The notes beneath the pieces are model-generated. The model made no database searches. It was not told where the DNA came from and was given only the letters and a program-made list of their open reading frames with translations. From Candidatus Omnitrophota bacterium (GTDB lineage Bacteria; Omnitrophota; Gorgyraeia; Gygaellales; JBFMHM01), in assembly GCA_040753015.1 (NCBI GenBank), contig JBFMHM010000005.1, positions 14,730 through 78,729 on the forward strand: DNA of 64,000 nucleotides, written 5' to 3'. Positions within the stretch are counted from its first letter, which is position 1; every line of letters begins with the position of its first letter. The translations under genes and the position numbers were made by a program. Of this stretch, positions 298-35,977 are shown in pieces.

Positions 298-975
298 TTA
301 TTTATTAAATCTAAATATTAAGGAATCTCCGTCGCAAACAATATATTCTTTACCTTCAAGGCGCATAACCGGTTTTAAGTCATGCACAGTAGTTGCTTTT
401 TCAATATCCGGCCAATTTACTACTTCTGCTTTAATAAACCCTCTTTCAATATCTGAATGAATTATGCCTGCAGCAAGAGGCGCAGTTACGCCTTTTTTTA
501 TAAGCCAAGCGCGGGCTTCTTTTTCTCCGGCAGTAAAATAAGAAATATAGCCGCAGGATGCAATAATCTCACCAATCTCTTTAGAAAAATTTTCCTGTTC
601 TTTTAATAAATACACCGGCTTAAGGCTAAGAAGGTTCATATTAGCTAAAAATTGCCTATCTTCTTCGGATAAATCAAGTTCTGAGATAAATTTTTCTTTT
701 TCTAGGCCTTCTTTAAGCTTAATAAAAAGCTCCCTTTTTTCTGGCTGGCTTTCAATATACTTCTCTGTCAATTCTAGGTCTTTAAAAATAAGTTCTAATT
801 TTTCACTTTCTAGACAGACAATTCCATCAGCCTCTATTAAATTATCTTTAATTAAACTAATCGTAATATAGGTCTTTTTTTTGGCTTTATAAAATTCTTC
901 TAACTTATCTAAACGGCTATCCTTAAAAGTTATTTTATCTTTCTCTGGGCTAAACCCAATAATTCCAATTTTCAT
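298..975 (-). CDS. YchF-like protein with a conserved C-terminal (TGS/DUF933-type) domain but a truncated, P-loop-less N-terminus
   Basis: C-terminal [31 protein letters not shown]...[20 protein letters not shown] aligns with the YchF C-terminus. The N-terminal [14 protein letters not shown] lacks the GxxxxGKS/T motif. At 225 aa it is shorter than the ~360 aa YchF. Confidence 0.55.
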
Positions 976-1070: not shown

Positions 1071-2246
1071 TTACTCTAGGTAGGTATAAATTTTACCCTT
1101 ATAATTGCGTAGGACATATTTACCCTTGGCTTGAGACAATAGATAATTTGGAGAAACTGGAATTTTACCGCCGCCGCCTGGGCCGTCAATAACATATGTT
1201 GGTACAGCATACCCTGAAGTAAAACCACGGAGTCTTTCGATAATATTTATCCCTACAGAAACCGGGGTTCTAAAATGGCTAGTCCCTCTGACCGGATCAC
1301 ATTGATAAATATAATAAGGCCTGACGCGGATTTGTAAAAGTTCATGCATTAATTTTCGCATTATATAAGTCCGATCATTGATACCCTTTAAAAGTACTGT
1401 TTGGCTACCTAAAACAAAACCATTATCTGCGAGTAAATTACATGCCTCTTTAGTGCGGCGAGTAACTTCTCTATAATGGTTAAAATGAATGCTTATCCAA
1501 AGCGGTGAGTATTTCTTTAATATTTTAATCAACCCTTCATTAATACGTTGCGGTAAAGATACAGGTGTGCGCGTGCCAATTCTTACAAATTCAACATGAG
1601 GAACACTACGTACTTTCTTTAATATCTCTTCAATAATATTATCCTCCAGCATAAATGGATCGCCGCCGGAAATAAGCACATCTCGTATCTTTTTATTTGA
1701 ACGTATATAATCAATAGCTAGATCTAAAGTTTCTAGGCTTAAAACATCTTCTTTTTTATCTCCAACGAGACGCCTTCGCGTACAATGACGGCAATACATC
1801 GCACAATGCTCGGTAGCCAAAAGCAATACTCTGTCTGGGTAACGATGCACGAGCCCGGGTACAGGGGAATCCCTGTCTTCTGCACAAGGATCTGCCATCT
1901 CACTATGTGTAGTAAAAAATTCTAAACTTGTCGGGACAGCCTGCCTCCTAAATGAACAGTTTGGATCATCCGGGTCCATATAACTTGCCCAATAAGGCGT
2001 GATAGCCATCGACAAGCGCCCCTTTGCATTCTTTAATCCATCTTCTTCTTGAGGAGTGAGATTAATTACCTGCCTTAACTCTTCTACTTTTCTAATACTA
2101 TGTTTAACCTGCCAACGCCAATCTTCCCAATCAAGGGGATTAATATCTTTAAATAACAATATATCTTGATAATCCCCTGGGCGTCTCTTTTGAATTTGCG
2201 GAGCTTCTTGAGAAACTATTTTTTCAACTGTTTCCTGTTTTTGCAA
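1071..2246 (-). CDS. kamA: Lysine 2,3-aminomutase (KamA family radical SAM enzyme)
   Basis: CAMYCRHCTRRR (CxxxCxxC radical-SAM motif in the KamA-specific context) plus the GGDP motif. Length is 391 aa. Confidence 0.8.
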   Translation of the reverse strand: MQKQETVEKIVSQEAPQIQKRRPGDYQDILLFKDINPLDWEDWRWQVKHSIRKVEELRQVINLTPQEEDGLKNAKGRLSMAITPYWASYMDPDDPNCSFRRQAVPTSLEFFTTHSEMADPCAEDRDSPVPGLVHRYPDRVLLLATEHCAMYCRHCTRRRLVGDKKEDVLSLETLDLAIDYIRSNKKIRDVLISGGDPFMLEDNIIEEILKKVRSVPHVEFVRIGTRTPVSLPQRINEGLIKILKKYSPLWISIHFNHYREVTRRTKEACNLLADNGFVLGSQTVLLKGINDRTYIMRKLMHELLQIRVRPYYIYQCDPVRGTSHFRTPVSVGINIIERLRGFTSGYAVPTYVIDGPGGGGKIPVSPNYLLSQAKGKYVLRNYKGKIYTYLE

Positions 2247-3288
2247 CTAACTGCTCCTTTTTTAATCCATATCGTTCTTTCGCCGCTTCTATAATTTTTG
2301 CGATTGTATCGCTAAAAGTTAAACCCATATATTCTGATACGAGTACAAACACATCCTCACAAGATAAGCTCGGCAAAGGATTAATTTCTAAGACAAAAGG
2401 ATTATTATTTTCATCAATCCTAAAATCAACCCTGCCGAAATCCCGGCATTCAACTGCATTATAGGTTAAAAGAGCATACCTCTGCATTGTTTCATTAAGA
2501 ACTTTTGAAAAATCATTATCAAACACATATTCAACATTGTCTTTTTTATACTTTAGATAATCATGTGTATAAAATTTATCTTTTAAATTAGACTGACCAT
2601 CAATTTTTATCTGTGATACCGGCAAAGCTTGTGCTTTATGTTTATTGCCAATAATCCCAACTGTCGCCTCTTTACCTGAAATAAATTCTTCAACTATCGC
2701 GGCCTGCTTATAGTTTATATTTACGTGCCTAATTCTTTTCTTAAGCTCATCAATGCTTGTTACCCTTGCGCTATCAGTTAGGCCTTTAGAAGAACCTTCG
2801 AAACGCGGCTTAACAATCATCGGAAAATTCATCCCTTTGATCTGATTATCAACGCTAGTTAAATCTTCTGCTTGAAAGAATTTTGGCGTCGGGATACCTT
2901 CGGCAACAAGAATTTTTTTTGTTAAGTATTTGTCTAGGGTCAGCCCTAAGGTTAAAGCATCTGCGCCAACAAATGGTATATCTTTTAGCTCAAGCAACAT
3001 GGGAACCTGAGATTCCCTATTCCTTCCTTTTGTCCCTTCACAGATATTAAAAACAAGATCAACGCCGAGGTTATTCAAACTAGAAATAACTCTATTAATA
3101 TTGCCAATTTTTTTAACTTTATAACCCAAAGACTCAATTGTCTTTGCCAAATTATCAATGGTCCCTTCGCTATCAAATTCGGCATTTATATCTTCGGGAT
3201 CGCCGATATTTGGCTTATAATCTGCTTTTAAATCAAAAGTTATTCCAATTGTATCTACCATAATATAAGATTTATAGAAAAAGCTCAT
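2224..3288 (-). CDS. ATP-grasp ligase of the D-alanine--D-alanine ligase family, translationally coupled to kamA
   Basis: Ddl-like N-terminal and ATP-grasp segments. The 3' end overlaps the kamA start by 23 nt. The annotated ATG sits inside a hairpin stem (3281-3306), so an alternative start at 3261 (MVDTIGITF) is possible. Confidence 0.65.
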   Translation of the reverse strand: MSFFYKSYIMVDTIGITFDLKADYKPNIGDPEDINAEFDSEGTIDNLAKTIESLGYKVKKIGNINRVISSLNNLGVDLVFNICEGTKGRNRESQVPMLLELKDIPFVGADALTLGLTLDKYLTKKILVAEGIPTPKFFQAEDLTSVDNQIKGMNFPMIVKPRFEGSSKGLTDSARVTSIDELKKRIRHVNINYKQAAIVEEFISGKEATVGIIGNKHKAQALPVSQIKIDGQSNLKDKFYTHDYLKYKKDNVEYVFDNDFSKVLNETMQRYALLTYNAVECRDFGRVDFRIDENNNPFVLEINPLPSLSCEDVFVLVSEYMGLTFSDTIAKIIEAAKERYGLKKEQLVAKTGNS

Positions 3289-3306
3289 CCCTCTAAAGAT
3301 GAGCTT
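3281..3306 (-). terminator. Terminator-like hairpin between the HAD gene and the ATP-grasp gene
   Basis: aagctcatc-cctctaaa-gatgagctt, a perfect 9-bp stem with a T-rich context on both strands. Confidence 0.5.
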
Positions 3307-3395
3307 TTAAAAATATCTAAAAAATTTTAATTTAATTTTCTCCTTTTATTTTTTTTATCACAACACAAAATTAAAGTCAAGAAAAAAATATAATA

Positions 3396-4028
3396 TTAAT
3401 TAACAAACGGGCTCCTTACATCAATTCCTAAAATATTAATCCTATCAAATATATCCTTTGTATTTTTAAATTGGACTGCGTATAAACCGAGTTTGCCTGC
3501 AGCTTCGATTAAATCTTTCCGATCATCAATATATATTGTCTCGTCTGGCTTAGTCCCCAAAAATGCAAGTGCCCGCTTATAAATCGATGGATGTGGCTTA
3601 ACCATATTCATCTCAAAAGAAAGGATCTTATATGTAAAATCGAAAATAAAATAATATTTTTCCTTTAAATAATCATAATGTAGTTTATTTATATTCGAAA
3701 GCACAAGTATAGGAAATTTTTTATTAAGTTCCTGTGCTAAGGATAAAATTAGAGCGTTCTCTTCACTGAAATAAAAAATTTCGTTCCAAATTTTTACAAA
3801 TTCATCGTAGGAAATTTCACAATTTAATCTTTTTTTAACTTCCATATAAAATTCGAAAGGCATAATTTTACCTTCTTCAAAAGACCTAGTAAGATCAGAA
3901 TCAAAAAAAAGATTATAAATATATTCTGAGTCCATATTTTTTATTAGGGGGGCTATCCGGCTTACTGCGATATTATGATCAAAATTAATCAAAACATTGC
4001 CTAAATCAAAAATAAATCCTTTAACCAT
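3396..4028 (-). CDS. HAD-superfamily hydrolase (subfamily IA-like)
   Basis: N-terminal FIFDLGNVLI HAD motif I and a C-terminal DDR motif. Length is 210 aa. Confidence 0.65.
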   Translation of the reverse strand: MVKGFIFDLGNVLINFDHNIAVSRIAPLIKNMDSEYIYNLFFDSDLTRSFEEGKIMPFEFYMEVKKRLNCEISYDEFVKIWNEIFYFSEENALILSLAQELNKKFPILVLSNINKLHYDYLKEKYYFIFDFTYKILSFEMNMVKPHPSIYKRALAFLGTKPDETIYIDDRKDLIEAAGKLGLYAVQFKNTKDIFDRINILGIDVRSPFVN

Positions 4029-4999
4029 TAATTTCCTCTTGGTTTTTGTTTCTTAAATAAATCTAAAAATCTGTCTTCATATTCTTTATAAATACCCCAT
4101 TTATCTAATTCTTGTTTTAAGATAGTCGCGTTTTTTAAATCTTTTTTTGCTTCTTCAAATAATTGCTCAATTCTTAATTTAACAGATTGCGGTAAATTTG
4201 TATATTGGCCCAGAGTATATTTTAAATGCTCAATTTCTTCGTCGCCTATCGGTGGAGGTGCAGAACCGCCTCCTTTTAAAAAATCAATTAATTGTTCTAT
4301 CTGGCCCTGGATTTCCTGTGCCTGCATTTCCAAGTCTTTTAAGCTAATATTTATTGAAAGCATGCTCATTAAAATTTCTAATATCGCAATAGCGGCCCTT
4401 GGATTCTCGAGTTGTACAGCATACAGAGGTATTTCGCCTAGTAGGCAAACTCCTTTTATCCCTCTTTTTTTAGCCATGCCCAAAAATAAACCATTCATCC
4501 CGCTTACATGCCCCTCTTTCATAAATTTTACATTATACTTTCCAAATATATCAATTAATTCTTTATCTGTAACTGCTGCCCAAACATTCGGCTTTGTTAA
4601 ATGATCTATAGGCAAAGGCATAGCAGCAAAACTAAATATTATTTTTATTTTTAATTGTATTATAAAATCAAGCAGTGCATCACAATAATTATTTGCAAAG
4701 ACTAAATCTGGCTGAGCATTACTAATAAATACTACTAAATCATTTGAACCGGCTTTATTTTTATAGACAAAAAATTTACTGTAAGGCAATTCTGTTAAAT
4801 CTAATAGATCATTTTTTATTGTTACGCCTGTCGGATAAAAGAAACTTTCTGGGTTTAACACAAAAAATTCTTCCATCTTTAGCTTTTCAATTAAATTTAA
4901 AGCAACTTTATAAGCCACATCCCCCATTCCTGGCCAAGCAACTATAAGTATCGGATTTTTAAGTTTTAATCGGGGAAATTTATTTTTGTTTTTATCCAT
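4028..4999 (-). CDS. PAC2 (proteasome assembly chaperone 2)-like family protein with a C-terminal coiled-coil extension
   Basis: N-terminal ILIVAWPGMGDVAYKVA resembles the PAC2-family signature. Its stop overlaps the HAD gene start. Confidence 0.45.
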   Translation of the reverse strand: MDKNKNKFPRLKLKNPILIVAWPGMGDVAYKVALNLIEKLKMEEFFVLNPESFFYPTGVTIKNDLLDLTELPYSKFFVYKNKAGSNDLVVFISNAQPDLVFANNYCDALLDFIIQLKIKIIFSFAAMPLPIDHLTKPNVWAAVTDKELIDIFGKYNVKFMKEGHVSGMNGLFLGMAKKRGIKGVCLLGEIPLYAVQLENPRAAIAILEILMSMLSINISLKDLEMQAQEIQGQIEQLIDFLKGGGSAPPPIGDEEIEHLKYTLGQYTNLPQSVKLRIEQLFEEAKKDLKNATILKQELDKWGIYKEYEDRFLDLFKKQKPRGN

Positions 5000-5048: not shown

Positions 5049-6302
5049 TTAGCGGATGCAAGTAATTTTCTTTATAATTTTATATCCTAAATATATAAAT
5101 AATAACTGCACGAGTATTGCAATCCTATATTTTAATATACCTAAGCTGCCAAATGCCCACACAACAACACCCCAAACAAGGGGCCCGATAATCGCCGAAG
5201 ATTTACCGGTAAGCCCTAACAAACCAAATATTTCTCCAACTTTTTCTTTTGGGCATAGATGTATCGCTAGCGCACGCGTAGAAACCCAAGTCGTACCAAG
5301 CGATATCCCGATTAGAGGCCCAATAAACCAAAAACATAATTTATTAAACGACACTGCGGCAAGGCCTAAACTAAGCATCCAAATTTTTAACATAAATTTT
5401 GTTGCTTTCAAAGAACCAAGCTTGTCTGTAACTACTCCAAATATAATTGAGCCAGCAGCGGCAAATATAGTAGACATAATAAAAAATGTGTGTATTTCAG
5501 AATCACTAAAACCCATTACCTTTTTTGTATATATTGCCATGAAAATAATAACTGTAGAGACAGCGTTAAGGAAAATAAACGAAGCGATTATAAAAGTACG
5601 CAACCCGGGGAAACTTTTAGTATCAATAAATGTCTGTTTAATCCTTAAAAAAGCACTCTTAAAGATACTTAAGTTTAAAAAATCACTTAGATTTATTTTA
5701 TTTTGTTCTCTCTCTTTAACAAATAAAAAGCATGGTAAAGCAAATAAAAAGAAATATATTGCTGTTGGGATAAATGCCGCGCGATAACCATACGATAAAA
5801 CGAAAGGTTTAACTAAAATCATTCCTGTGATCGCCCCAATATATCCTAAACTTACACCTACACCAGAAATTCTGCCCACATCAAAAGACTTAGAGACATC
5901 AAATAATAATGCATTATAAAATATTGCGCCTACTTGGTAGGCAAGATTTGCGACTGAAAAAAATATTAATCCCCAAAGCAGGCTATCTGAAATTCTAATC
6001 ATACCGGTAAATATACAACAAAGAATTGTAAAAAAAACTAAATATGGCATCTTTGACTTTTGTTTATCAGATACCGCTCCTAAAATTGGCTCTAATATTG
6101 CAGCAATAATCATCGAGGTTGAAAGTGCTAAACTATAATAAATGTCCTGTCCGCCTTTTTCTATAACTATCCAAAGAGCAAAATACAAGGTTACTATGTT
6201 CATCGAAAACATAGTATTAGCAAAATCATATAACCCCCAAGAAGCAATTGTCAGAATATTACGTAGGTGAATACCCAAATTATTTTTTATATTATTATTC
6301 AT
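5049..6302 (-). CDS. MFS transporter (UMF1/Atg22-like family)
   Basis: Multiple predicted TM helices and an N-terminal YDFANTMFS motif typical of the UMF1 family. Confidence 0.65.
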   Translation of the reverse strand: MNNNIKNNLGIHLRNILTIASWGLYDFANTMFSMNIVTLYFALWIVIEKGGQDIYYSLALSTSMIIAAILEPILGAVSDKQKSKMPYLVFFTILCCIFTGMIRISDSLLWGLIFFSVANLAYQVGAIFYNALLFDVSKSFDVGRISGVGVSLGYIGAITGMILVKPFVLSYGYRAAFIPTAIYFFLFALPCFLFVKEREQNKINLSDFLNLSIFKSAFLRIKQTFIDTKSFPGLRTFIIASFIFLNAVSTVIIFMAIYTKKVMGFSDSEIHTFFIMSTIFAAAGSIIFGVVTDKLGSLKATKFMLKIWMLSLGLAAVSFNKLCFWFIGPLIGISLGTTWVSTRALAIHLCPKEKVGEIFGLLGLTGKSSAIIGPLVWGVVVWAFGSLGILKYRIAILVQLLFIYLGYKIIKKITCIR

Positions 6303-6362: not shown

Positions 6363-9044
6363 ATGGATAAAAAAATGTTAATTCATAAAAGATTTCAGGA
6401 TACAACAAACAAATTTCCCGATAAAACTTGCCTACAATATAAAGAAGCTAATCAATACAAAATTATTACATACCGCCAAGTAGAAACCCAAAGTTTAAAG
6501 ATAGCAAATTTCCTAATTATAAATAATATTAATCCTGGTGATACTGCCGTATTAATCTCAGAAAACTGTTATGCCTGGCCAATAATATATTTAGGTATAA
6601 TGTTCAGCGGGGCTACTTGTATACCTGTTGATCCACAGGTAAAAAAAAGAGAAATTGAAAATATATTATTGGACTCCCAAGCAAAGATTATTTTTATTTC
6701 AGAAACTATTTATCAAATTTTTGTCAATTTTCCCGAGCTTGAGAAAAATCTGATTAAAATTATCGTTATAAAAAAGGATGTGAGTAGAGAAAAATATGTT
6801 GGCTTTGAAAAAATTATTCAAGATTATGAAACACAACAAATCCTACCAGAAATAGAACCCTCAAACCTTGCATCTATATTATACACCTCTGGGACAACCT
6901 CAAATCCAAAAGGCGTATGTATTAGCCATTATAATTTCTGCTCTGACGTTGACTGCATTTTAAAAACAAAATTACAAAAACCAAATGATAATTATATTTC
7001 AATACTTCCTCTTTATCACACATATGCATTCACCGCAACATTCTTAGTGCCATTTTTTACCGGCGGTTGCATTACATATATCAATACCCTGAATACCAAA
7101 GAAATAACACAAACAATAAAAGAAACGAATATTACAGTGATGGTTAGCGTACCACAGATGTTTAACCTGATTCATAAAAATATCTTTGATAAAATTTACA
7201 ATCAGGGTTTTTTAAACAGAAATTTAATTTTATTTTTAATAAATATTTGCGGATTTATTAAATTTAATTTCGGTATAAATTTAGGAAAAATTGTTTTTGC
7301 AAAAATTCATAATATGTTAGGCAAAAATTTGCGAATCTTAAATAGCGGCGGAGCAAAACTAGACCAAAAAGTCTATTTAGACTTAAATAAACTTGGTTTT
7401 AATCTTACGAATGGCTACGGCTTAACCGAAACATCCCCTGTTGTTACTTTGCTCAAAACCTCTGAAATTAAACCTGGATCTGTTGGTAAGCCGCTACCAG
7501 GGATAGAAATCAAAATTAATAATCCGGATAAAAGGGGAGTAGGTGAAATTCTAATTAAAGGCCCAAATGTTATGCAAGGGTATTTTAAACGTAAAGACTT
7601 AACTGATGAGGTGATAAAAGACAATTGGTTCTATTCTGGCGACCTTGGTTTTATTGATAAGAATGGTTACCTTTATATTACTGCACGTATTAAAGAAGTT
7701 ATAGTTTTATCTTCGGGAAAGAATATTTATCCCGATGAAATTGAAGAAGTTTTACTACAAAGCCCCTATATAAAAGAGGCCTGCGTATTTTCCTTAGCAG
7801 ATGGGGCAAAAGAAGCTTTGCATGCGGCAATTCTTCCTGATATTGAATATTTTAAAGCTCAAAAAGAAATCAATATTAATCAAAAAATACGTTGGGAACT
7901 AGAAAATCTTTCAAAAAATCTTGCAAATTATAAGCATATTATGAGTTTTTCTATCGAAAAAGACCCTCTACCCCGCACGCATCTGGGGAAAATAAGAAGA
8001 TATATAGTTAAAGAAAATTATATTAAAAGAAAAGTTATCTCTGGACAAGAAAAACAAACTACGCCCCAGCAACTATCAGAAAGCTCAAAAAAAATAATCT
8101 ACTTTTTAAGCCATGAATTAAAAAAACCAGTCGATGTTAACGATCATCTTGAACTCGATTTAGGAATAGATTCTCTAACAAGAGTAGAACTAGTTTTAAA
8201 ACTTGAAAGGTATCTTGGCGCAAGCCTGGATGAAAATTTCATTGCAGACATCTTTACTGTAAATGATTTAATTTCAAAGATAGAGCAATTCAAGAATAAG
8301 GAACCAATAGTTAACAAAGATAAGCAAAAGTTGTCTTGGCAAGATATACTAAATCAAAAACTTGATAAGAATATCCTCGAAAAAATTAAATTAAACCAAT
8401 CTAATATCGAGAAAATATTATTTTTTACTTCAACAAGTCTACTATATTTAATTTTTAAAATTTTCTGGAAGATAGAGATAAAAAATAAAGAGCAACTTCC
8501 AACAAATGGCCCATATATTATTTGCCCAAACCATGCTAGTTTTCTCGACGGATTTGCTATTGGTATTTCTTTACCATATATTATTAGGCAAAAAGCCTTT
8601 TTCTTCGGACTTACTGCCTATTTTGAAAATAAAATTATTTCATGGTCAGATAAATTTTTAAAAGTAATACCTATAGACCCTCTAACAAATTTAACTGGTG
8701 CAATGCAGGCGGCAAGTTTTGTTTTAAAAAATAATAGAATAATGTGTATTTTCCCTGAAGGTGAACGTTCTAGCGACGGAAATGTAAAGAATTTTAAAAA
8801 AGGTGTTGGGATATTAGCAAAAGAGTTAAATGTTGTTTTAGTTCCGGTTTATATCGCGGGAAGTTTTTCTGCTTGGGGACGCGGTAGAAAATTTCCTAGA
8901 AGCCATCCTATTACTGTAATTTTTGGAAAACCAAAGACTTGGCAAGAATTTAAACAAAATAATACAACCCCAGATATTGATGAATATCAAGTAATTGCAA
9001 ATGGTATACGAGATGAAGTAATAAAACTTAAAACGCCTGATTAA
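6363..9044 (+). CDS. Tri-domain fusion: AMP-dependent acyl-CoA/ACP synthetase, phosphopantetheine carrier domain, and 1-acyl-sn-glycerol-3-phosphate acyltransferase (PlsC) domain
   Basis: YTSGTTSNPKG AMP-binding motif. DLGIDSLTRVEL carrier-protein Ser motif. C-terminal PNHASFLDGF (HxxxxD acyltransferase motif) and FPEGERS. Confidence 0.75.
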   Translation: MDKKMLIHKRFQDTTNKFPDKTCLQYKEANQYKIITYRQVETQSLKIANFLIINNINPGDTAVLISENCYAWPIIYLGIMFSGATCIPVDPQVKKREIENILLDSQAKIIFISETIYQIFVNFPELEKNLIKIIVIKKDVSREKYVGFEKIIQDYETQQILPEIEPSNLASILYTSGTTSNPKGVCISHYNFCSDVDCILKTKLQKPNDNYISILPLYHTYAFTATFLVPFFTGGCITYINTLNTKEITQTIKETNITVMVSVPQMFNLIHKNIFDKIYNQGFLNRNLILFLINICGFIKFNFGINLGKIVFAKIHNMLGKNLRILNSGGAKLDQKVYLDLNKLGFNLTNGYGLTETSPVVTLLKTSEIKPGSVGKPLPGIEIKINNPDKRGVGEILIKGPNVMQGYFKRKDLTDEVIKDNWFYSGDLGFIDKNGYLYITARIKEVIVLSSGKNIYPDEIEEVLLQSPYIKEACVFSLADGAKEALHAAILPDIEYFKAQKEININQKIRWELENLSKNLANYKHIMSFSIEKDPLPRTHLGKIRRYIVKENYIKRKVISGQEKQTTPQQLSESSKKIIYFLSHELKKPVDVNDHLELDLGIDSLTRVELVLKLERYLGASLDENFIADIFTVNDLISKIEQFKNKEPIVNKDKQKLSWQDILNQKLDKNILEKIKLNQSNIEKILFFTSTSLLYLIFKIFWKIEIKNKEQLPTNGPYIICPNHASFLDGFAIGISLPYIIRQKAFFFGLTAYFENKIISWSDKFLKVIPIDPLTNLTGAMQAASFVLKNNRIMCIFPEGERSSDGNVKNFKKGVGILAKELNVVLVPVYIAGSFSAWGRGRKFPRSHPITVIFGKPKTWQEFKQNNTTPDIDEYQVIANGIRDEVIKLKTPD

Positions 9045-11877
9045 TGCCTACCCAGGCATGAATTCCTTTTTCAGTCTTATCATCGATTGCTTTTGCAACA
9101 TCTACTCTTAAAGCGACGCGTTCTATAAAACCGCAAATATCAAAATATAACCTAATGCCAAGACCTGCATCTTTTTTAAAACGCATATCATTAAAACTCG
9201 AATACCATGATTTACCTATATCAAAAAAAGTTACAATTTGCAGATTATCAAAATGAACTAAATTGTCTGCTATATATAACCCTAAGTCTTTTATTAAATT
9301 AAACCTGTGTTCGAAACTCATAATTAACATTCGAGATCCTTTTAACTCTTTATAACCATATCCGCGTAAGCCAAATTCGGAACCTGCTTCAAACAAATCC
9401 TTATCGTCGGGAATACCAAAACCATTCTTTAAACGAAAAGCTATTTTCTGGCGGCTGGATAGTCTAAAATATTTATCGAACTCAATTAAGTTTCGATAAA
9501 AATAATCTCTGCCTCCCCAATAATGCCCTGCGGCCTCGAATAAATCTTTTATTTTAAATCCTATTTCAGGATCTAAATAAGGAGCGCTAGTTGAAAAATT
9601 TAAATCAAATCCGGCGAGCGCCTCATGTTTTTGCCTGTAATGAAGGTTACTGACATTATCTAATTTTCTATCACGAAGCATATATAAATTTATATAATTC
9701 TGCTGCTCAAATATCCCGTAACTCGGAGGAAAAAATTTCTTTTTTAAATACACAATGCCGCCCCTAACATCATTATCTTTATTCGGCGGTAAGTCAGTTG
9801 TATTATTATATTCAACACCAAAATCAATATCTTGATTAAATACATGCTCTTTTTTAAATCCAACTCTTGATTTCATACCCTTTTCATGAAAATCATATCC
9901 ACTTGATAAATAAATACTATAATCATAGGGTTTCTGTATTGATGTTTTTATACCGATTCCTGAACCAATAACATCTGGCCCGGTTATCCAATTATAACAA
10001 TCACGCTCTTGGAATATAGGATAATCATAAAGCGGGAAATAAAAAGGAACGAACTTTGTTTCTATACACCTAGGGGTTTTATTATTAACTAAATCTAGGT
10101 CCATTAAATATTTATCAGGATTAATTTGTGCGCGCTCTATTTTATTAATACTGTCAGCATTAAATCTTGTAATTTTATCTATGCCGTCTGTCTTAAAAAT
10201 TTTACTTGTTGAATCTTTATATTTAACTTCAATTTCTAAAGGTTCTATTGCATCCCTTTTATTTCGAACAATCACATTGTCTTTTCCTATATACACTGCA
10301 TAATCGCATTTTTTTTCACTCCTAAGCCACTGGTCAAAATACCAATTATAATCACCATCTGTAACTTTATTTACAATATTAACAAAATCATCGACATTTG
10401 CATTTTTAAATTTATACTTTTCAAAATAATTTTTTATTATTTGGTAAAACTGCTCGCTGCCGATTAAATCGTGGAATTGTCTTAATACTGCCTCGCCCTT
10501 GCTATACGCAAGAGAGAAAATCATACTCGGCTCTCTAAAACTAGAAAGCTCTCCTAACACAGTACGGCTTTGGTCTCTTTTCGCAAGATATAAATATCTA
10601 AAGTCAGATGTATCTATAAAGGTAAAATTCGGGATTAACCAAACAAGACTTTTTGGTAAAACCATAACATTAGCATATTTACCATATTTTTCTTCTAGAT
10701 AGATTAATGTGAAATAAGAATTGAGCGCTTCATCAAGCCAAGTCTCTTTATATTCATCAGAACCAACCATATTAAACCACCACTGGTGGCCGGTTTCATG
10801 GGCAATTAAAAAATCAAAATAGCGGTTCAAGAATTTTGGCAGCTTATAGACCCGCGTATCTATCAAAATCATGCAAGATGTTTCATGGCCACCGCTGCCT
10901 AGATAAACCGGTGCAATACTAAATTCTGGATAGGGATAACCCCCAATTTTTTTGGAATAATTGTCAATAAGATCAGCAGCGCAAGAAGCAGCGAGCCTTG
11001 CGTGATAAAAATCATTTTCTAAATAATAGGATTTAATCTTGATATTGTTTATCTCCTTTTCATATAATTTAAAACGATCACTTACAACCAAGGTAAAATC
11101 TCTTACAGGGCTTGGAGTATTAAAAATAAGTGTCTTCTTATTGGATAGTTGCAACTGACCGTCCAAAATTCCTGTTGATATAACTATTTGCTTATTATCA
11201 ACTGTAAATTTCACCTTGTATAAAGAAGCATCGCTATAATATGGTTGGTGAAATAAATAAAATGGATAGTCATGCCATCCTTTTGAATCATAAACACATA
11301 ATAAAGGATACCAGCGATGTAAAGAAGTTATACCTTCATTAAAACCAAACCTTCCCCAAACATGAGGAATTTTGACTTTAAAATCAATCTCTAAATCAAT
11401 AGTTTCGGATGTATTTAACACTTGAGGTAAATTAATCTTTAGAACTTCTCCATCTTTTTCCATTGAATATGTTAGCGAGCTTTGTTTTGAATATATCTTA
11501 CTGATATCTAGTTTTCCTTCTTGAAAACCCGCGGGAAATAATTCATCTATTTTAAAATAACCGGAATATTTAATAAGATCGTTTCTCTCTTTTTTAGATA
11601 TTTTTTTATTTGGATAAATATGAAAATAAATTATATCTGTAGGTGCGTAATTATTTGTAAATTTAACCTTTTGATGAGCACTAATTATATGCGTCTTAAC
11701 ATCTAATTCAGCATTAATATCATATTTGGGATAAGCAAAGGCAAAATCACAAATTACAAACAGCAAGTAACAGACAAATACCAAAATACAAATTCTAAGC
11801 TTGGTTTTTTTTAATTTGCAATTTGTTTGTGATTTGAAAATTGGAACTTGTAATTTTTTAAGGGGCAGATTTCGCAT
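9028..11877 (-). CDS. M1-family zinc metallopeptidase domain fused to a C-terminal predicted outer-membrane beta-barrel domain
   Basis: IAHETGHQWWFNMV...WLDEALNSY matches the M1 HExxH-x18-E signature. The C-terminal ~400 aa has an alternating pattern and ends in ...GINQAF (aromatic terminal residue). An N-terminal hydrophobic segment is present. Confidence 0.55.
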   Translation of the reverse strand: MRNLPLKKLQVPIFKSQTNCKLKKTKLRICILVFVCYLLFVICDFAFAYPKYDINAELDVKTHIISAHQKVKFTNNYAPTDIIYFHIYPNKKISKKERNDLIKYSGYFKIDELFPAGFQEGKLDISKIYSKQSSLTYSMEKDGEVLKINLPQVLNTSETIDLEIDFKVKIPHVWGRFGFNEGITSLHRWYPLLCVYDSKGWHDYPFYLFHQPYYSDASLYKVKFTVDNKQIVISTGILDGQLQLSNKKTLIFNTPSPVRDFTLVVSDRFKLYEKEINNIKIKSYYLENDFYHARLAASCAADLIDNYSKKIGGYPYPEFSIAPVYLGSGGHETSCMILIDTRVYKLPKFLNRYFDFLIAHETGHQWWFNMVGSDEYKETWLDEALNSYFTLIYLEEKYGKYANVMVLPKSLVWLIPNFTFIDTSDFRYLYLAKRDQSRTVLGELSSFREPSMIFSLAYSKGEAVLRQFHDLIGSEQFYQIIKNYFEKYKFKNANVDDFVNIVNKVTDGDYNWYFDQWLRSEKKCDYAVYIGKDNVIVRNKRDAIEPLEIEVKYKDSTSKIFKTDGIDKITRFNADSINKIERAQINPDKYLMDLDLVNNKTPRCIETKFVPFYFPLYDYPIFQERDCYNWITGPDVIGSGIGIKTSIQKPYDYSIYLSSGYDFHEKGMKSRVGFKKEHVFNQDIDFGVEYNNTTDLPPNKDNDVRGGIVYLKKKFFPPSYGIFEQQNYINLYMLRDRKLDNVSNLHYRQKHEALAGFDLNFSTSAPYLDPEIGFKIKDLFEAAGHYWGGRDYFYRNLIEFDKYFRLSSRQKIAFRLKNGFGIPDDKDLFEAGSEFGLRGYGYKELKGSRMLIMSFEHRFNLIKDLGLYIADNLVHFDNLQIVTFFDIGKSWYSSFNDMRFKKDAGLGIRLYFDICGFIERVALRVDVAKAIDDKTEKGIHAWVGINQAF

Positions 11878-18665: not shown

Positions 18666-20033
18666 CTACTCATTTTGGGTTAAAATATAACTGTTAATTA
18701 ATTTATGCGGCCGATAAGACATTTTTACTTTCTCTAAATTACTAATCCCTGAATCATCCATTACATTTATAAATTTATACATGGTTAGTTTTTTACAAAA
18801 TTGCCAAAAAATAAACTGAGCAAGGCCTTTGATCTCTAAATCGGTAATTTCTGCAAAAATACAGAATGTATCTTTGTTTATCGGATAGCCAAAAGAATAT
18901 GCTTTTATTTTACCATTTCCACCCGAGGCGGATCCGCCTTTGGCGTAAATTTTTACAACATAACCATTCATCACAAGTTTAGCAAAATTCTTCATTAAAA
19001 ATTCATGCAGGATAAGATTATCCTTGATCATCATACAATACACATCATCTTTATTGAATTTTAACTGCCTATTACCTGACCAATTTTTATATAAACTAAT
19101 GGCTTCCTTTGTATATTCTTTGTTAAATGGCATAAATTCATAATTATAATTTTTCAAAAAATAATTCAATGCTGACCTTTTAGATTTAAATTTATCGCCT
19201 CTTAATTCAATCATATCCTTTGTGGCATATAAATATTCTTTAAATTTTGGTTTTAAAAAATATTGTGGCCTGTCGGTAGAGACGCAATTAATCATTTCTC
19301 TACAACCAAATCCATCTTCAATATTTTCTATTCTAGATACTGCTTTATTTTTATTAACGCTATTCATAATTTCAAAACACTTTTCTATTGTTCCAATATC
19401 GATTTTTTCCCCTAGCGGAAAAAAATTCATAAAGCAGCTACGGCTATCTTTAAAAAATATGCATAGGTTAGCATTAATAAAACAATAGGTGATATCATAC
19501 AAACATTTCCAAAGAAAAATGTTTTCAAATGAGTAAGCTGAAAGAGTATATTTAGAAATTTTAAGATAGCTATTTATTAATTTCTTATCCCGAATAGAAA
19601 GATTAATTAGTTTAGTATCAATATTAACTTTATCTAAAAAAATTAATTCATCTTTTGGGTATTCTTTAATAAAACCGGGGTTATCGAGAATAAATTTTTT
19701 GTTTTTGCTAGATAACAAGTACTTTACTAGGCCATCTGTATATGATTTTAAATTTAATTTACTAATATTTTCCTCAATGAACAAACATAATTTATGCAAT
19801 GCAATGTAGACTTGATTTTCTCTTTTTGCTAAAACAAAAGGGTATATTTTACAATCAAGCGGCCGTCGTGGATAAATCTTGCATTTATTCGTCTTAATAT
19901 CCAAATGCGGACACACATATAAATCTTTATAAACATTTGGTTTTATTTTATAAGGAAGCCAAACAGTATTTATATCATGAAATCTGCAGCACCCAAGGCA
20001 GGCAAGGCAAAATTTTGAAGAAACAAAGCGCAT
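18666..20033 (-). CDS. Hypothetical protein with an N-terminal YkgJ-type Cys-cluster (CxxCxxCC) domain fused to a large uncharacterised C-terminal domain
   Basis: CLACLGCCRFH...CPHL...CKIYPRRPLDCKIYPF Cys pattern of the UPF0153/YkgJ zinc/iron-chelating domain. The remainder is unassigned. Confidence 0.4.
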   Translation of the reverse strand: MRFVSSKFCLACLGCCRFHDINTVWLPYKIKPNVYKDLYVCPHLDIKTNKCKIYPRRPLDCKIYPFVLAKRENQVYIALHKLCLFIEENISKLNLKSYTDGLVKYLLSSKNKKFILDNPGFIKEYPKDELIFLDKVNIDTKLINLSIRDKKLINSYLKISKYTLSAYSFENIFLWKCLYDITYCFINANLCIFFKDSRSCFMNFFPLGEKIDIGTIEKCFEIMNSVNKNKAVSRIENIEDGFGCREMINCVSTDRPQYFLKPKFKEYLYATKDMIELRGDKFKSKRSALNYFLKNYNYEFMPFNKEYTKEAISLYKNWSGNRQLKFNKDDVYCMMIKDNLILHEFLMKNFAKLVMNGYVVKIYAKGGSASGGNGKIKAYSFGYPINKDTFCIFAEITDLEIKGLAQFIFWQFCKKLTMYKFINVMDDSGISNLEKVKMSYRPHKLINSYILTQNE

Positions 20034-27640: not shown

Positions 27641-28114
27641 TTATTGTAGTATAAAGATTAGAAGGATTAGAAAAAATAACCCCACGGCTAAAAATATAGT
27701 TTTTACATCTAATATGTAAGAAATATTTTTTCCTGAGTTTATTTTAGTAATTGACTGCGCATGAATATCTAAATCTCCACCATGTTCAGGGCATGCTCGA
27801 TTAAATTTTCCAGTAATCTCTACTAAATCACCTTTTACTTTATAATTACCTATATAAAGAATGTCTCTAATTAAGTCTTTTTTTATCCATACACCTATTG
27901 CATTTAACCCATCGTTAATACTTAACCAAGCATATTCTTTACGCACCATAATGTCGCCTACCACTTCACCCTCAAAAGCAACTATCTTCCCATCATATTC
28001 TTTGGCGTTAGCAATAAGGTCAATACTCTTCATTGGTTGCTCAGCGTAGCACAATAAAGGCAAAAGTAAAAAGTACAGGTAAAAACTTAAAATGTTTAAA
28101 TTTTTAGTTTCCAT
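27641..28114 (-). CDS. Small signal-peptide protein with a BOF (YgiW-like OB-fold) domain and a C-terminal TM anchor, translationally coupled to trkH
   Basis: The ORF track extends to 28189. The likely start is METKN at about 28114, overlapping the trkH stop (TAATG-type junction). SIDLIANAKEYDGKIVAFEGEVVGDI resembles the BOF/DUF388 signature. The C-terminus is hydrophobic. Confidence 0.5.
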   Translation of the reverse strand: METKNLNILSFYLYFLLLPLLCYAEQPMKSIDLIANAKEYDGKIVAFEGEVVGDIMVRKEYAWLSINDGLNAIGVWIKKDLIRDILYIGNYKVKGDLVEITGKFNRACPEHGGDLDIHAQSITKINSGKNISYILDVKTIFLAVGLFFLILLIFILQ

Positions 28115-29616
28115 TATCTTCCTTTTATAAATGCCGCAAGAAAGCCCGCAAAGGCAAAAACCGATATCAACTCTAAGCGGCCTGCCCACATCTCGATTAT
28201 ATAAGTTATTTTTAATATCGTCGGCATACTTACATCAGTAATCCCGCAAGAAAACCCAACATTAGCTGCGGCAGACGTTGATTCAAAAATGGCTTCTAAA
28301 AAGGGGTAGCCTAACCAAACCCCCACTAAAGCGCCCACTCCATAAATAAAAAAGTACCCTAACGTAATCATTAAAACCGTCCGCACTTGCGCATCCTCAA
28401 TAAACATCGTTCTTATATGATGAAATTTTTGTGATACTACAGCCGTACCAGGAAGTATCATTTTTTTTAAATCTTCTTTTAACGCTTGATAAATAATCCC
28501 AATACGTAACATTTTAATGCCACCGGCTGTAGAACAAGTACAACCGCCTAACGCCATAGCAATAATTAACCCCATTAGAGCAAAATCTCCCCACTCTTTA
28601 ATAAATTGTTGGGCATACACTGTCATATAGCCCGTAGTGCTATGAGCAGAAATAATATGAAAAAAACCTTTTCTAAATAACGTCATTGCTCCAGAGTAAA
28701 CACCAAAATAATTTAAACCAGCCAAAATAATCAATGATACTAACATAATAATAAACAAGAAAGTTCTGGTTTCAATATTTTTCCAAATTTCTTTATAGTT
28801 GCCACGCCAAAATTGATAATGTAAATTAAAATTAAGCGATCCTAAGACCATAAATACTATTACAATAATTTCGAGAAACAAACTATGATAATAAAGAATA
28901 CTTTGTGATTGCGGCGTAAAACCTGCGGTATCAAACCCTGCCATAAAAATACATGCCCCGTGAAAAAAGGCATTTTGCGGTTTTAATCCAATATAAACAC
29001 CAACACATCCTAATATAATTGTACCTAATATTAAATATAGAACACTAACTAACCAGATAAACCGCGCTGTGTGCATAATATTAGGCACTAACTTTTCATC
29101 TCGAGCTTCTCCTGCATATATTTTTAGAGCGCTGCTGCCTTTAACCAAAAAAGAAATTGCAATGATTGCTATTCCTTGGCCACCAATAAAAGGCCCTAGA
29201 TGGCGCCATAAATTATGTGTTTTTGATAAATGATCTAAGTCTTGTACTAGGGTAAGCCCAGTCGTAGTAAACCCTGACATAGTTTCAAAACAAGCATCAA
29301 GAAAAGAATTATAATGCCCGCTTAAAAACAATGGTATTGCTCCTACTGCCATTGCTGCAAGCCAAGAAAGAGAAACTACGACCATAGCCTGAACATTGTT
29401 TAAATCGTGCTTGCTATAACAAACTTTGCTTAAAATTAGGCCTATAATTATTGTAATTTCAGCGCTTACTAAAAAATTTAATGCCGGATTTGGTTCTTTA
29501 AATAAAACTAAACCTAAAATAAAAGGCACAAGCATAGCTATCCCTAGCCCTAATAAAATTTTTCCTAGATAATAACCTATATTTTTAATATCTCTTAATT
29601 GCGGCTTTAGTATCAT
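28114..29616 (-). CDS. trkH: Trk/Ktr-type potassium uptake membrane subunit (TrkH/KtrB)
   Basis: 500-aa polytopic protein with repeated M-P-M pore-like segments and GFTTTG-like selectivity motifs. Confidence 0.8.
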   Translation of the reverse strand: MILKPQLRDIKNIGYYLGKILLGLGIAMLVPFILGLVLFKEPNPALNFLVSAEITIIIGLILSKVCYSKHDLNNVQAMVVVSLSWLAAMAVGAIPLFLSGHYNSFLDACFETMSGFTTTGLTLVQDLDHLSKTHNLWRHLGPFIGGQGIAIIAISFLVKGSSALKIYAGEARDEKLVPNIMHTARFIWLVSVLYLILGTIILGCVGVYIGLKPQNAFFHGACIFMAGFDTAGFTPQSQSILYYHSLFLEIIVIVFMVLGSLNFNLHYQFWRGNYKEIWKNIETRTFLFIIMLVSLIILAGLNYFGVYSGAMTLFRKGFFHIISAHSTTGYMTVYAQQFIKEWGDFALMGLIIAMALGGCTCSTAGGIKMLRIGIIYQALKEDLKKMILPGTAVVSQKFHHIRTMFIEDAQVRTVLMITLGYFFIYGVGALVGVWLGYPFLEAIFESTSAAANVGFSCGITDVSMPTILKITYIIEMWAGRLELISVFAFAGFLAAFIKGR

Positions 29617-33317: not shown

Positions 33318-34202
33318 TTAAACGCCAAGAAACAACTTGAGCATTGCGCTGTATTTAGCACTAGTCTCATCAACAATTTCCTTGGGTAGTTCTGGGGCAG
33401 GAGGAGTTTTATTCCAATCTAATGTCTCTAAATAATCACGCACAAATTGCTTATCAAAACTTGCCTGAGGAGCACCAGGTTTATATTCACTAATCGGCCA
33501 GAAGCGCGAAGAATCAGGCGTAAGAACTTCATCGATAAGAATTATTTCGTTATCATAAATACCAAATTCGAATTTCGTATCGGCAATAATTATTCCGTGT
33601 TTCTCGGCATAAGAACCTGCTTTCTTATAAATGGCTAAACTTAATTCTCTTAATCTACCTGTGGTATCTTTACCTATTTTACTTTCAACATACTCGGAAG
33701 AAACATTAATATCATGCCCCACTTCTTCTTTAGTTGAAGGAGTAAAAATAGCTTCGGGCAATTTATCGGATTCTTTAAGCCCAGATGGCAATTTTATTCC
33801 GCAGATACTTTGAGTTTTCTGATATTCTTTCCATCCTGAACCAGACAAATATCCTCTCACAATACATTCTACAGGAATAGAGTTAGCTTTTTTAACCAGC
33901 ATCGAACGATCACGTAATATTTCCTTATATTTTTCTACCTCTTTTGGGTATTCATCTATATTTGCAGTAATTAGATGGTTAGGGACAATATCACGGGTCA
34001 GCTCAAACCAAAACAAGCTTAAACGCGTTAAAATTTCACCTTTTTTAGGAATACAGGTAGGCAGCACTACGTCAAAACAGGATATTCTATCGGTAGAAAT
34101 AACTAAGAGTTTATCATCTAAATCATATACATCGCGAACTTTACCACGACGAAAAAACTTTAAATCTTTAAAATCTGTTTTTGCTACTGTATTTACCTGC
34201 AT
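33318..34202 (-). CDS. purC: Phosphoribosylaminoimidazole-succinocarboxamide (SAICAR) synthase, long form
   Basis: GKVRDVYDL motif and overall SAICAR synthetase pattern. Length is 294 aa. Confidence 0.85.
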
Positions 34203-35977
34203 TTATTTTTTAATTTAAGCTTTAGCGCATTAAATTCATTCCATAATTCATCTGGTAAATCCTTACTAAATTGCTTAAAAAAATCACTTATTCTTGCGAG
34301 CTCCTCAAGCCAATCTTTTTTGTCTATAGTAAAAAGCTTTTCTAAAACTTTGCCTGATAAGTCTAAGCCGGTCATATCAATATCTTCGAAATTAGGAATA
34401 TATCCTATAGGGGTTTCTTGAGCACTAACCTTATTGTTGCAACGATCTATTATCCATTCTAAAATCCTTAGGTTATCTCCGTAACCTGGCCATAAAAATT
34501 TTCCCTGATTATCGGTTTTAAACCAATTAACATGAAAAATTTTTGGAGCCCTTTTCATACGCTTACCCATATTTAACCAATGAGAAAAATACTCTGCCAT
34601 GTTATAACCGCAAAAAGGAAGCATTGCCATCGGATCTCTGCGAACCTCGCCAATTTTTCCTACTTGAGCTGCGGTCCTTTCTGATGCCATAGTAGCACCA
34701 ACAAATACTCCATGCTGCCAATTAAATGCTTCATAAACTAGAGGCGCAAGATGTGCGCGCCTGCCACCAAAAACAATTGCTGAAATTGGAACTCCATGAT
34801 GCTGCTCGAGCCTAAAAGTTGATGATGGACATTGCTTTATTGGTGTAGTGAAACGACTATTTGGATGAGCGCCTAAGATTTTTTTGCCGTCTTTATCTAG
34901 TGCGCCCGGATACCATGGCCTTCCTTGCCAATCAGTGCCACTTTGCGGCACTTCCCCATCTGCACCCTCCCACCAAACAGTACCATCTGGCTTTAATAGA
35001 ACATTTGTATAAATTGTATTTTTTTGAATAGTTTTAACCATATTGGGGTTTGATTTTGAATTAGTCCCTGGCGCTACCCCAAAAAAACCAGTCTCAGGAT
35101 TAATTGCCCAAAGAGAACCATCAGAATCTATACGCATCCAGGCAATATCATCACCTACAGTCCATATACGATAACCTTTTCTCTTTAATCCTTCTGGAGG
35201 AACAAGCATAGCTAGATTTGTTTTTCCACAAGCACTAGGAAAAGCTGCGGCAACATATTCTATATGGCCATTGGGCTCTTCTATGCCCATAATGAGCATA
35301 TGTTCTGCAAGCCAATGCTCACGTTTACCTTGAAAACTCGCAATACGCAAAGATAAGCATTTTTTACCAAGTAATACGTTGCCTCCGTAACCTGATCCTA
35401 CACTCCAGATTGTGTTATCTTCAGGGAAATGTAGAATCAATCTTTTATCAATATCTAGTTCTGCTTTAGAATGCAGACATTTAGTAAAATTCGTGTTCTT
35501 TTTGATTTGTTCCAATACGCTTGAACCAACGCGTGTCATAATTAACATATTTAAAACAACATAACGTGAATCTGTTAATTCTACACCAACCCTAGAAAAC
35601 TCTGAACCTATAGGCCCCATCGAGAAAGGAATTACATACATCGTACGCCCCTTCATTGCACCTTTGAAAATCGCCCGTGCCTTTTTATATGCAAGGGACG
35701 GTTTCATCCAGTTATTATTTGGGCCTGCAGTATGTTTTTTCTTTGTACAAATATAGGTAAGATGTTCTGTGCGAGCAACATCGTTGACAGCAGTACGGTG
35801 CAAAAAGCAACCAGGTAATTTTTTTTGATTTAAAGGGATGAGCTCACCGGTTGTAATTGCTTCTTGCTGAAGTTGATTTTTTTGTTCATCTGAACCATCA
35901 ATCCATACAGCATTATCCGGTTGGCATAATTTTTGACAAGCATTAACCCATTTTTTTAACTCATTGAATTTTTTCAT
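34193..35977 (-). CDS. pckG: Phosphoenolpyruvate carboxykinase (GTP)
   Basis: 594 aa. Kinase-1a-like motif [14 protein letters not shown] and the PEPCK-GTP family pattern. Confidence 0.9.

Follow-up and report, generated by a model that had tools for sequence, protein, structure and literature searches.

The question raised by this locus is what a lysine 2,3-aminomutase gene (kamA) is for when the gene directly ahead of it encodes an ATP-grasp ligase resembling D-alanine-D-alanine ligase (Ddl). Both genes lie between positions 1071 and 4999 of the window, the 64,000-nucleotide stretch of contig JBFMHM010000005.1 from a Candidatus Omnitrophota assembly (GCA_040753015.1) analysed here. A first-pass annotation of this DNA had called the aminomutase a bona fide KamA, had reported a 23-nt overlap with the upstream ligase gene, and had read the pairing as a sign of ATP-dependent ligation of beta-lysine, or another beta-amino acid, into a peptide-like product, by a pathway it did not recognise as described. 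Judged from sequence, the pairing is far beyond chance and the two genes are predicted to be functionally coupled, a conclusion drawn from phylum-wide synteny, occurrence in other phyla and gene fusions in both domain orders. We propose, with moderate confidence, that the module makes a small beta-lysine-containing amide (a dipeptide or pseudopeptide), with KamA supplying beta-lysine and the ligase joining it.

The four open reading frames (ORFs) of the region were verified at the positions noted for them, every one on the minus strand, and are transcribed in the order PAC2, HAD, ATP-grasp ligase, kamA. Direct reading of the sequence bears out the overlap: the ligase gene ends in ...VAKTGNS-TGA, with its stop codon at 2226-2224, and kamA begins with TTG at 2246-2244, with a Shine-Dalgarno sequence (AAGGAG, 2259-2254) 7 nt 5' of this start. 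Overlap or abutment also occurs in relatives (11 nt in locus L001, 4 nt in L003). The second ATG of the ligase ORF, at 3261 (MVDTIGITFDLK...), is the more probable start, because relatives of about 329 residues begin at the aligned MKTVGLTYDLK. An identical ligase protein has been recorded from a Candidatus Omnitrophota metagenome-assembled genome (MAG). A promoter and terminator scan returned match counts no higher than chance.

A genome-collection scan with the ligase as sole query yielded 80 loci, nearly all from Omnitrophota or from PVC MAGs that seem to be mislabelled, and 64 non-redundant loci with at least 2.3 kb downstream of the ligase were counted. The neighbourhood survey called for in the first-pass annotation thus found the pair conserved among relatives, with kamA directly downstream of the ligase in 64/64 loci. 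The order was ligaseA-ligaseB-kamA in 63 of these, with median gaps of 7 and 42 nt; the remaining locus, L081, has ligaseA-kamA only, as in the window. LigaseA and ligaseB are paralogues of about 39% identity. The window ligase is of the A type, with 55–58% identity to A and 37–40% to B and HMM scores of 466 and 253 bits, respectively, and ligaseB was not found elsewhere in the window. In a neighbour-joining (NJ) tree, the single-ligase lineages (the window, L081, L087 and the Elusimicrobiota contig L085) branch at the base of the A clade.

The association extends to other phyla. An exhaustive search of 1.84 billion cluster representatives recovered 738 ligase relatives at E <= 1e-30, and the best 150 of these 738 include 36 tandem double ligases and three fusions to KamA. 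Two fusions (P0247 and P0250) are KamA-ligase and one (P0222) is ligase-KamA; the presence of both domain orders implies independent events. The two genes are adjacent in L087 and lie within 4 kb of each other in L085. In three further loci the fusion has its own neighbours: an MFS transporter and then a second ligase in L090, an S66 peptidase (LD-carboxypeptidase-like) after the KamA-ligase fusion in L088, and an aminotransferase ahead of the fusion in L089. Just upstream of the fusion in L088, a 66-aa ORF (7164-7364) shows a weak match to LysW-type zinc ribbons, a hint that it may be an amino-group carrier protein. Older annotations label the ligases of this family D-alanine-D-alanine ligase, and an ordinary ddl lying by chance next to kamA, with no functional link, would fit that label. 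Such a reading is effectively refuted by the invariant adjacency within Omnitrophota, the fusions in both orders, the spread over several phyla and the failure of all Ddl cut-offs described below.

A scan of metagenome contigs with a fusion as query gave another 80 loci, of 37–75% GC. In this query-biased set the dominant arrangement is kamA-ligase(G1)-ligase(G2), seen in 47 of the 49 loci whose sequence extends far enough, and in 26/43 a gene for a small RimI-like GNAT comes next. In the Methyloceanibacter-type group the next gene instead encodes a 757–772-aa HDAC-like deacetylase fused to a GNAT, and the four genes of Methyloceanibacter run head to tail, with overlapping starts and stops, between guaB and guaA. 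Two examples of this fourth gene (L173, 9481-11754; L145, 10177-12468) encode proteins of about 760 aa in which an N-terminus of about 260 aa without family assignment precedes the deacetylase and GNAT domains; the single chain thus carries seemingly opposing activities. The idea that fused double ligases and G1/G2 are plain orthologues of types A and B was rejected, as G2 branches off as a clade of its own and A, B and G1 group together in a single supergroup.

Remoter ligase relatives (about 37% identity) stand beside Ala_racemase_N genes or alone, and a plasmid search for annotated carriers returned distant ATP-grasp genes only (33–37% identity), without kamA. At 8001-11432 of locus L086, the gene for a 724-aa tandem double Ddl-like ligase has a Peptidase_S58 gene directly after it and no kamA nearby; S58 is the DmpA/beta-aminopeptidase family. 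Genes for S58, S66 and M20 peptidases and for GNAT or deacetylase-GNAT proteins adjoin family members. The wider family therefore looks like a set of putative ligases for non-standard amino acids, each paired with an enzyme that would make its substrate.

What, then, does each partner do? The KamA of the window, which contains HCAMYCRHCTRRR, is by its model scores and residues a short-form lysine-type 2,3-aminomutase, predicted to act on free L-lysine, and the first-pass assignment holds. It passes the NCBIfam model for the general KamA subfamily (TIGR00238; 360.6 bits, cut-off 199.2). Its top NCBIfam score is that of the AblA-type lysine 2,3-aminomutase model (TIGR03820), at 514.7 bits just under the cut-off of 525.4, a near miss due to the presence of model positions 6–360 of 417 alone. 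Models of other clades, for some of which a phylogeny had been suggested as a check, gave failing scores: glutamate 2,3-aminomutase (TIGR04368; 455.2 bits, cut-off 650), arginine 2,3-aminomutase (395 bits, cut-off 600) and EpmB (TIGR03821; 233.4 bits, cut-off 369.3). The Clostridium lysine 2,3-aminomutase (LAM) structure PDB 2A5H was matched at 1.2e-145. The radical S-adenosylmethionine (SAM) motif CxxxCxxC is present as CAMYCRHC (residues 148–155, aligned to C125/C129/C132 of 2A5H) and is found in 74/74 relatives. Residues K361, R157, D317 and D354 of the window protein correspond to Lys337, Arg134, Asp293 and Asp330 of 2A5H and are kept in 73–74 of 74 related KamAs. In that structure we take Lys337 to bind pyridoxal 5'-phosphate (PLP), Asp293 and Asp330 to hold the epsilon-ammonium group, and Arg134 to hold the carboxylate. 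Given that Arg134 and Asp293/Asp330 are conserved, the substrate would be free L-lysine with both ends unblocked. Identity as a glutamate 2,3-aminomutase is contradicted by the retention of both aspartates, with no Lys/Asn swap, together with the low score.

The window KamA departs from 2A5H in its C-terminal part. The zinc ligand Cys268 is replaced by Arg (R/K/S/T/D in relatives), the C-terminal Cys cluster is absent, and the protein stops at the equivalent of residue 367. The related KamAs form a distinct short subfamily lacking the C-terminal ~55 residues and the zinc site, and those of the metagenome kamA-ligase-ligase operons have an equally short C-terminus and the same near-miss AblA score. 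This shortening, and the Gln found at the Asp293 position of the fused KamA in L089, could be accommodated by a different order or substrate, in which the ligase first builds a lysine dipeptide that KamA then isomerises, or in which the short KamA takes another amino acid. We regard this as very unlikely, since the lysine-contacting residues are nearly invariant and the glutamate and arginine models score lower and far under their cut-offs.

The ligase is, by the tests applied, a predicted active amide ligase of the Ddl fold that is not a D-Ala-D-Ala ligase, because its catalytic residues are invariant, its D-Ala-site residues are changed and the Ddl cut-offs fail. Every Ddl model in NCBIfam scored below cut-off (best NF002378, 175.4 against 243 bits), with the Ddl equivalog models at 73–119 bits against cut-offs of 310–1015. 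Solved Ddl structures match only ligase residues ~68–339, at about 1e-26. An AlphaFold (AF2) model built from 98 homologues had a predicted local distance difference test (pLDDT) score of 95.2, and in Foldseek its top PDB folds were all Ddl, with template modelling (TM) scores of 0.75–0.86 and 20–24% identity. Residues were mapped onto E. coli DdlB, with the reference sequence verified against 2DLN/1IOV. The ATP, Mg and acyl-phosphate residues K97, K144, E180, E187, R255, D257, E270 and N272 (DdlB numbering) are invariant. At the D-Ala site, the GGxSxE15 motif is replaced by PxDxxAEFD, His63 by Glu (E84) and Met259 by Arg (R290); the Lys215/Tyr216 pair is lost, with L/K instead; and an invariant Asp occupies the Ser281/Leu282 loop, which in Ddl binds the second substrate. 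The first-pass annotation had named clustering with cell-wall Ddl enzymes as grounds for abandoning its proposal, and the NJ tree instead places E. coli DdlB (~22% identity) as a distant outgroup to the entire ligase family. Pfam and NCBIfam (June 2026 release) hold no curated family for these ligases beyond the "Ddl C-terminal domain".

These results also bear on a cell-envelope role, in which the ligases would be Ddl variants making an unusual beta-lysine or D-amino-acid dipeptide for the peptidoglycan stem or cross-bridge. In its favour, the ligase has the fold and catalytic core of Ddl, one KamA-ligase fusion has an S66 LD-carboxypeptidase-like gene after it, 37/50 Omnitrophota loci have a DapE/ArgE-family M20 gene upstream, and Ala_racemase_N genes are the partners of distant family members. 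Nevertheless, we consider such a role improbable. None of the loci examined has mur or dcw genes beside the module, the residues that bind D-Ala are changed, and the cassette occurs in Methyloceanibacter, an alphaproteobacterium that presumably has a canonical ddl; moreover, beta-lysine is to our knowledge not a known constituent of peptidoglycan. One neighbour matching "Mur_ligase" was rejected as a cell-wall gene, as it is FolC.

In the proposed mechanism, KamA would turn free L-lysine into beta-lysine, and the ligase would form an acyl-phosphate with ATP and couple beta-lysine to a second amino acid or amine. We prefer a reading in which beta-lysine (or another cationic amine) would serve as the amine acceptor, because a cationic side chain would be well matched by the invariant Asp of the second-substrate loop. 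The second ligase of most Omnitrophota would add a further residue, so that their product is probably one residue longer than that of the window lineage, which has one ligase. Where a GNAT or deacetylase is present, it would cap or uncap the free amine. We infer that beta-lysine is a ligase substrate, the direction in which it is ligated, and that the product is a free small molecule. The last of these is hinted at by the MFS, peptidase and GNAT or deacetylase-GNAT neighbours and by the racemase-type partners of remoter members. The product might serve as a cytoplasmic solute or a polyamine-like cation, or it might be exported.

Several points weigh against this proposal. The second substrate cannot be read from sequence. 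Mapping of the N-terminal domain and the 281/282 loop rests on an alignment at 22% identity, which makes the loop equivalences approximate. The fusion query biases the metagenome set towards loci with both families, and its co-occurrence figures are biased accordingly. Finally, the genes surrounding the Omnitrophota module serve housekeeping and translation (an EF-G paralogue, the YchF-like gene, purH, folC and mnmE), a setting that would also fit a protein-modification or cell-envelope role.

Protein modification would have the ligase attach beta-lysine to a translation factor or ribosomal protein, analogous to EpmB/EpmA acting on EF-P or RimK on S6. Protein-modifying ATP-grasp enzymes such as RimK are known, and the module occupies a phylum-wide housekeeping locus with an EF-G paralogue adjoining in 32/50 and the YchF-like gene, downstream of kamA, in 45/50 Omnitrophota loci. 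We nonetheless judge this explanation unlikely. The EF-G and YchF neighbours are confined to the main Omnitrophota set, KamA scores as AblA/LAM type and not as EpmB, the ligase falls in the Ddl branch of small-molecule enzymes, and no conserved small substrate ORF was seen. The MFS, peptidase, GNAT and racemase partners likewise point to a small molecule. The positions of the module and its flanking genes are collected in Table 1.

Table 1. Positions in the window of the kamA/ligase module and the genes flanking it.
Feature	Position	Strand	Details
kamA, short-form lysine 2,3-aminomutase (radical SAM, PLP-dependent)	1071..2246	-	391 aa, TTG start; Pfam Radical_SAM + LAM_C
"graspA", Ddl-fold ATP-grasp amide ligase (predicted)	2224..3261 (longest ORF 2224..3288, 354 aa)	-	Pfam Dala_Dala_lig_C, 3.6e-34
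Overlap of ligase stop region and kamA start, 23 nt (putative translational coupling)	2224..2246	-	direct sequence reading
HAD-IA hydrolase	3396..4028	-	Pfam Hydrolase/HAD_2
PAC2-family protein	4028..4999	-	PF09754, 132.5 bits vs gathering threshold 25.8
MFS / Atg22-like transporter, upstream of PAC2	5049..6302	-	Pfam MFS_1 + ATG22
YchF-like protein, C-terminal domain only, downstream of kamA	298..975	-	profile match

Do the PAC2 and HAD genes belong to the module, as their grouping in the first-pass annotation implied? They do share its strand, but the statement that they follow the pair does not hold, as both precede it in transcription. They could work in the same pathway, with the HAD protein dephosphorylating an intermediate and PAC2 serving as a scaffold: the PAC2 stop codon overlaps the HAD start by one base, the HAD gene ends 107 nt from the longest-ORF start of the ligase (3288) and 134 nt from its probable start (3261), and about 75% of Omnitrophota loci have the series M20-PAC2-HAD upstream. 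Distribution speaks otherwise and makes their participation doubtful. HAD and PAC2 genes occur within 8 kb upstream of the ligase in 38/50 and 37/50 Omnitrophota loci, respectively, and are thus missing from that range in 12–13; where present, they lie 0.3–7.5 kb away with unrelated genes between. PAC2, HAD, M20, the EF-G paralogue and the YchF-like gene are all absent from the ~90 related loci outside the main Omnitrophota set, which carry the KamA/ligase module in other lineages. We therefore rejected PAC2, HAD and M20 as pathway members on distribution, and these five genes probably represent phylum-level synteny at a housekeeping locus. Relatives of the PAC2 protein in the PDB are PbaA/3VR0 and Rv2125, and NCBIfam proteasome-chaperone models fall below cut-off on it (108.6 against 200).

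The position taken by M20 elsewhere is occupied in the window by an insertion comprising a Peptidase_M1-Omp85 gene, a plus-strand Aas-like gene and the MFS gene. The MFS protein could be an exporter of the product or a partner of the divergent Aas-like gene, and its membership in the module is uncertain. Non-orthologous MFS genes recur next to the module: in L023, L030 and L069 they lie between kamA and ychF_C, and in L090 one separates the KamA-ligase fusion from the second ligase. This recurrence hints weakly at transport of the product. The Aas-like protein (6363-9044, plus strand; 893 aa) combines AMP-binding, carrier (PP-binding) and acyltransferase domains in an order reversed relative to E. 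coli Aas, and with the divergent MFS/Atg22-like gene it may form a lysophospholipid-recycling pair. The 949-aa Peptidase_M1 protein (9028-11877, minus strand) carries an Omp85-type outer-membrane barrel, an architecture also found at the edge of L087.

Other features of the surroundings were recorded in passing. The YchF-like protein of the window has 225 aa and matches the YchF-GTPase_C part only (profile positions 270–367 of 368); its N-terminus is without a P-loop, and a promoter-like site scoring 11/12 lies at 1052-1024, 5' of its gene. Between HAD and ligaseA, 24/50 Omnitrophota loci encode a ~245-aa protein (e.g. L003, 7064-7801), absent from the window, that matches PF27030 "AbpE_bact" and reaches 257 bits against a cut-off of 271 for the NCBIfam "hypothetical protein" model PRK04334. 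Farther along the minus strand of the window, two proteins of 2089 aa (41863-48132) and 613 aa (37535-39376) have no Pfam match at E <= 1e-5, a CxxCxxCC zinc/iron-chelating domain is fused to LPG_synthase_C (aminoacyl-phosphatidylglycerol synthase-like; 18666-20033), and V/A-type ATPase A and B subunits are encoded at 49698-52734. The window also encodes phosphoenolpyruvate carboxykinase (PEPCK; 34193-35977) and TrkH (28114-29616).

How does the module compare with known uses of beta-lysine, which comprise an acetylated osmolyte, the modification of EF-P, and fermentation or the assembly of antibiotics? The AblA/AblB system, which makes N-epsilon-acetyl-beta-lysine in methanogens and corresponds to yodP-kamA in Bacillus, likewise has a LAM-type KamA and a next gene that derivatises beta-lysine; AblA is the best model for the window KamA, and the wider kamA-ligase-ligase operons often end in a GNAT. 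It differs in that the derivatising enzyme is an acetyltransferase and not an ATP-grasp ligase, and in that the window KamA lacks the C-terminal domain and zinc site. No GNAT was found in the window up to about 22.7 kb or in the Omnitrophota loci, and the RimI-like GNAT of other lineages matched no AblB model. EpmB/EpmA also joins a KamA-family aminomutase to an ATP-dependent enzyme forming a beta-lysyl amide, but EpmA is a LysRS paralogue working via an adenylate, whereas the window ligase is of the ATP-grasp type and would use an acyl-phosphate; neither efp nor epmA is among the genes listed around the module. Lysine fermentation genes (kamDE, kdd, kce, kal) were likewise missing from the Pfam assignments of window positions 1–22.7 kb and of the related loci.

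On the ligase side, Ddl (EC 6.3.2.4) and its Van variants share the three-domain fold and the ATP/Mg/acyl-phosphate residue set, and differ in their low identity, in the GGxSxE, His63, Lys215/Tyr216 and Ser281/Leu282 positions that are not conserved here, and in the cell-wall gene context that the module lacks. Closer in concept are the stand-alone ATP-grasp enzymes BacD/YwfE, RizA, TabS, MysD and Ngg (of NAGGN synthesis), which build small peptides out of unusual amino acids that the products of neighbouring genes provide; Ngg, with a GNAT and an ATP-grasp domain in one protein, yields an acetylated dipeptide solute. None of them has a KamA partner or uses beta-lysine, and, apart from the general Ddl C-terminal domain, NCBIfam and Pfam gave the window ligase no sequence-level membership in such families. 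By this comparison, the module would be an instance of small-peptide synthesis by an ATP-grasp enzyme whose substrate comes from a dedicated amino-acid-modifying partner.

The nearest precedent is negamycin. In Kitasatospora purpeofusca the lysine 2,3-aminomutase KamA2 serves its beta-lysine-derived unit (10.1101/2025.07.31.667836), and an ATP-grasp superfamily member is said to be encoded in KinJ-homologue clusters, of which neg is one (10.1101/2025.05.27.656397). The likeness drawn here lies in the combination of a lysine 2,3-aminomutase with a reported ATP-grasp enzyme. Negamycin is a specialised actinomycete antibiotic whose assembly involves hydroxylation, N-N bond formation and methylation, whereas the module described here is minimal, is spread over several phyla and occupies a housekeeping locus in Omnitrophota. 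We found no description of a KamA/ATP-grasp module in the accessible literature (the 2009 ATP-grasp amidoligase survey of Iyer et al., outside that scope, might mention the neighbourhood), which agrees with the initial impression that the pathway is not a described one.

On balance, it seems to us an evenly poised proposition that these genes define a widespread, so far unrecognised beta-lysine-peptide pathway, built from a short KamA, one or two Ddl-fold ligases and in some lineages a GNAT or deacetylase, making a solute, polyamine surrogate or secreted effector, and present both as a core trait of Omnitrophota and in culturable Alphaproteobacteria such as Methyloceanibacter; or, alternatively, a new ATP-grasp beta-lysylation of a cellular macromolecule. 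Thousands of database entries in this ligase family named "D-alanine-D-alanine ligase" are probably mis-annotated. The kamA-ligase-ligase operon in Methyloceanibacter, a genus that we take to have cultured species, makes the hypothesis directly testable. If true, the KamA/ATP-grasp cassette would add a fourth, ribosome-independent route for beta-lysine, leading to beta-amino-acid peptides. Omnitrophota are uncultivated and have very small cells; as the module is apparently core in this phylum, its product may bear on their physiology.

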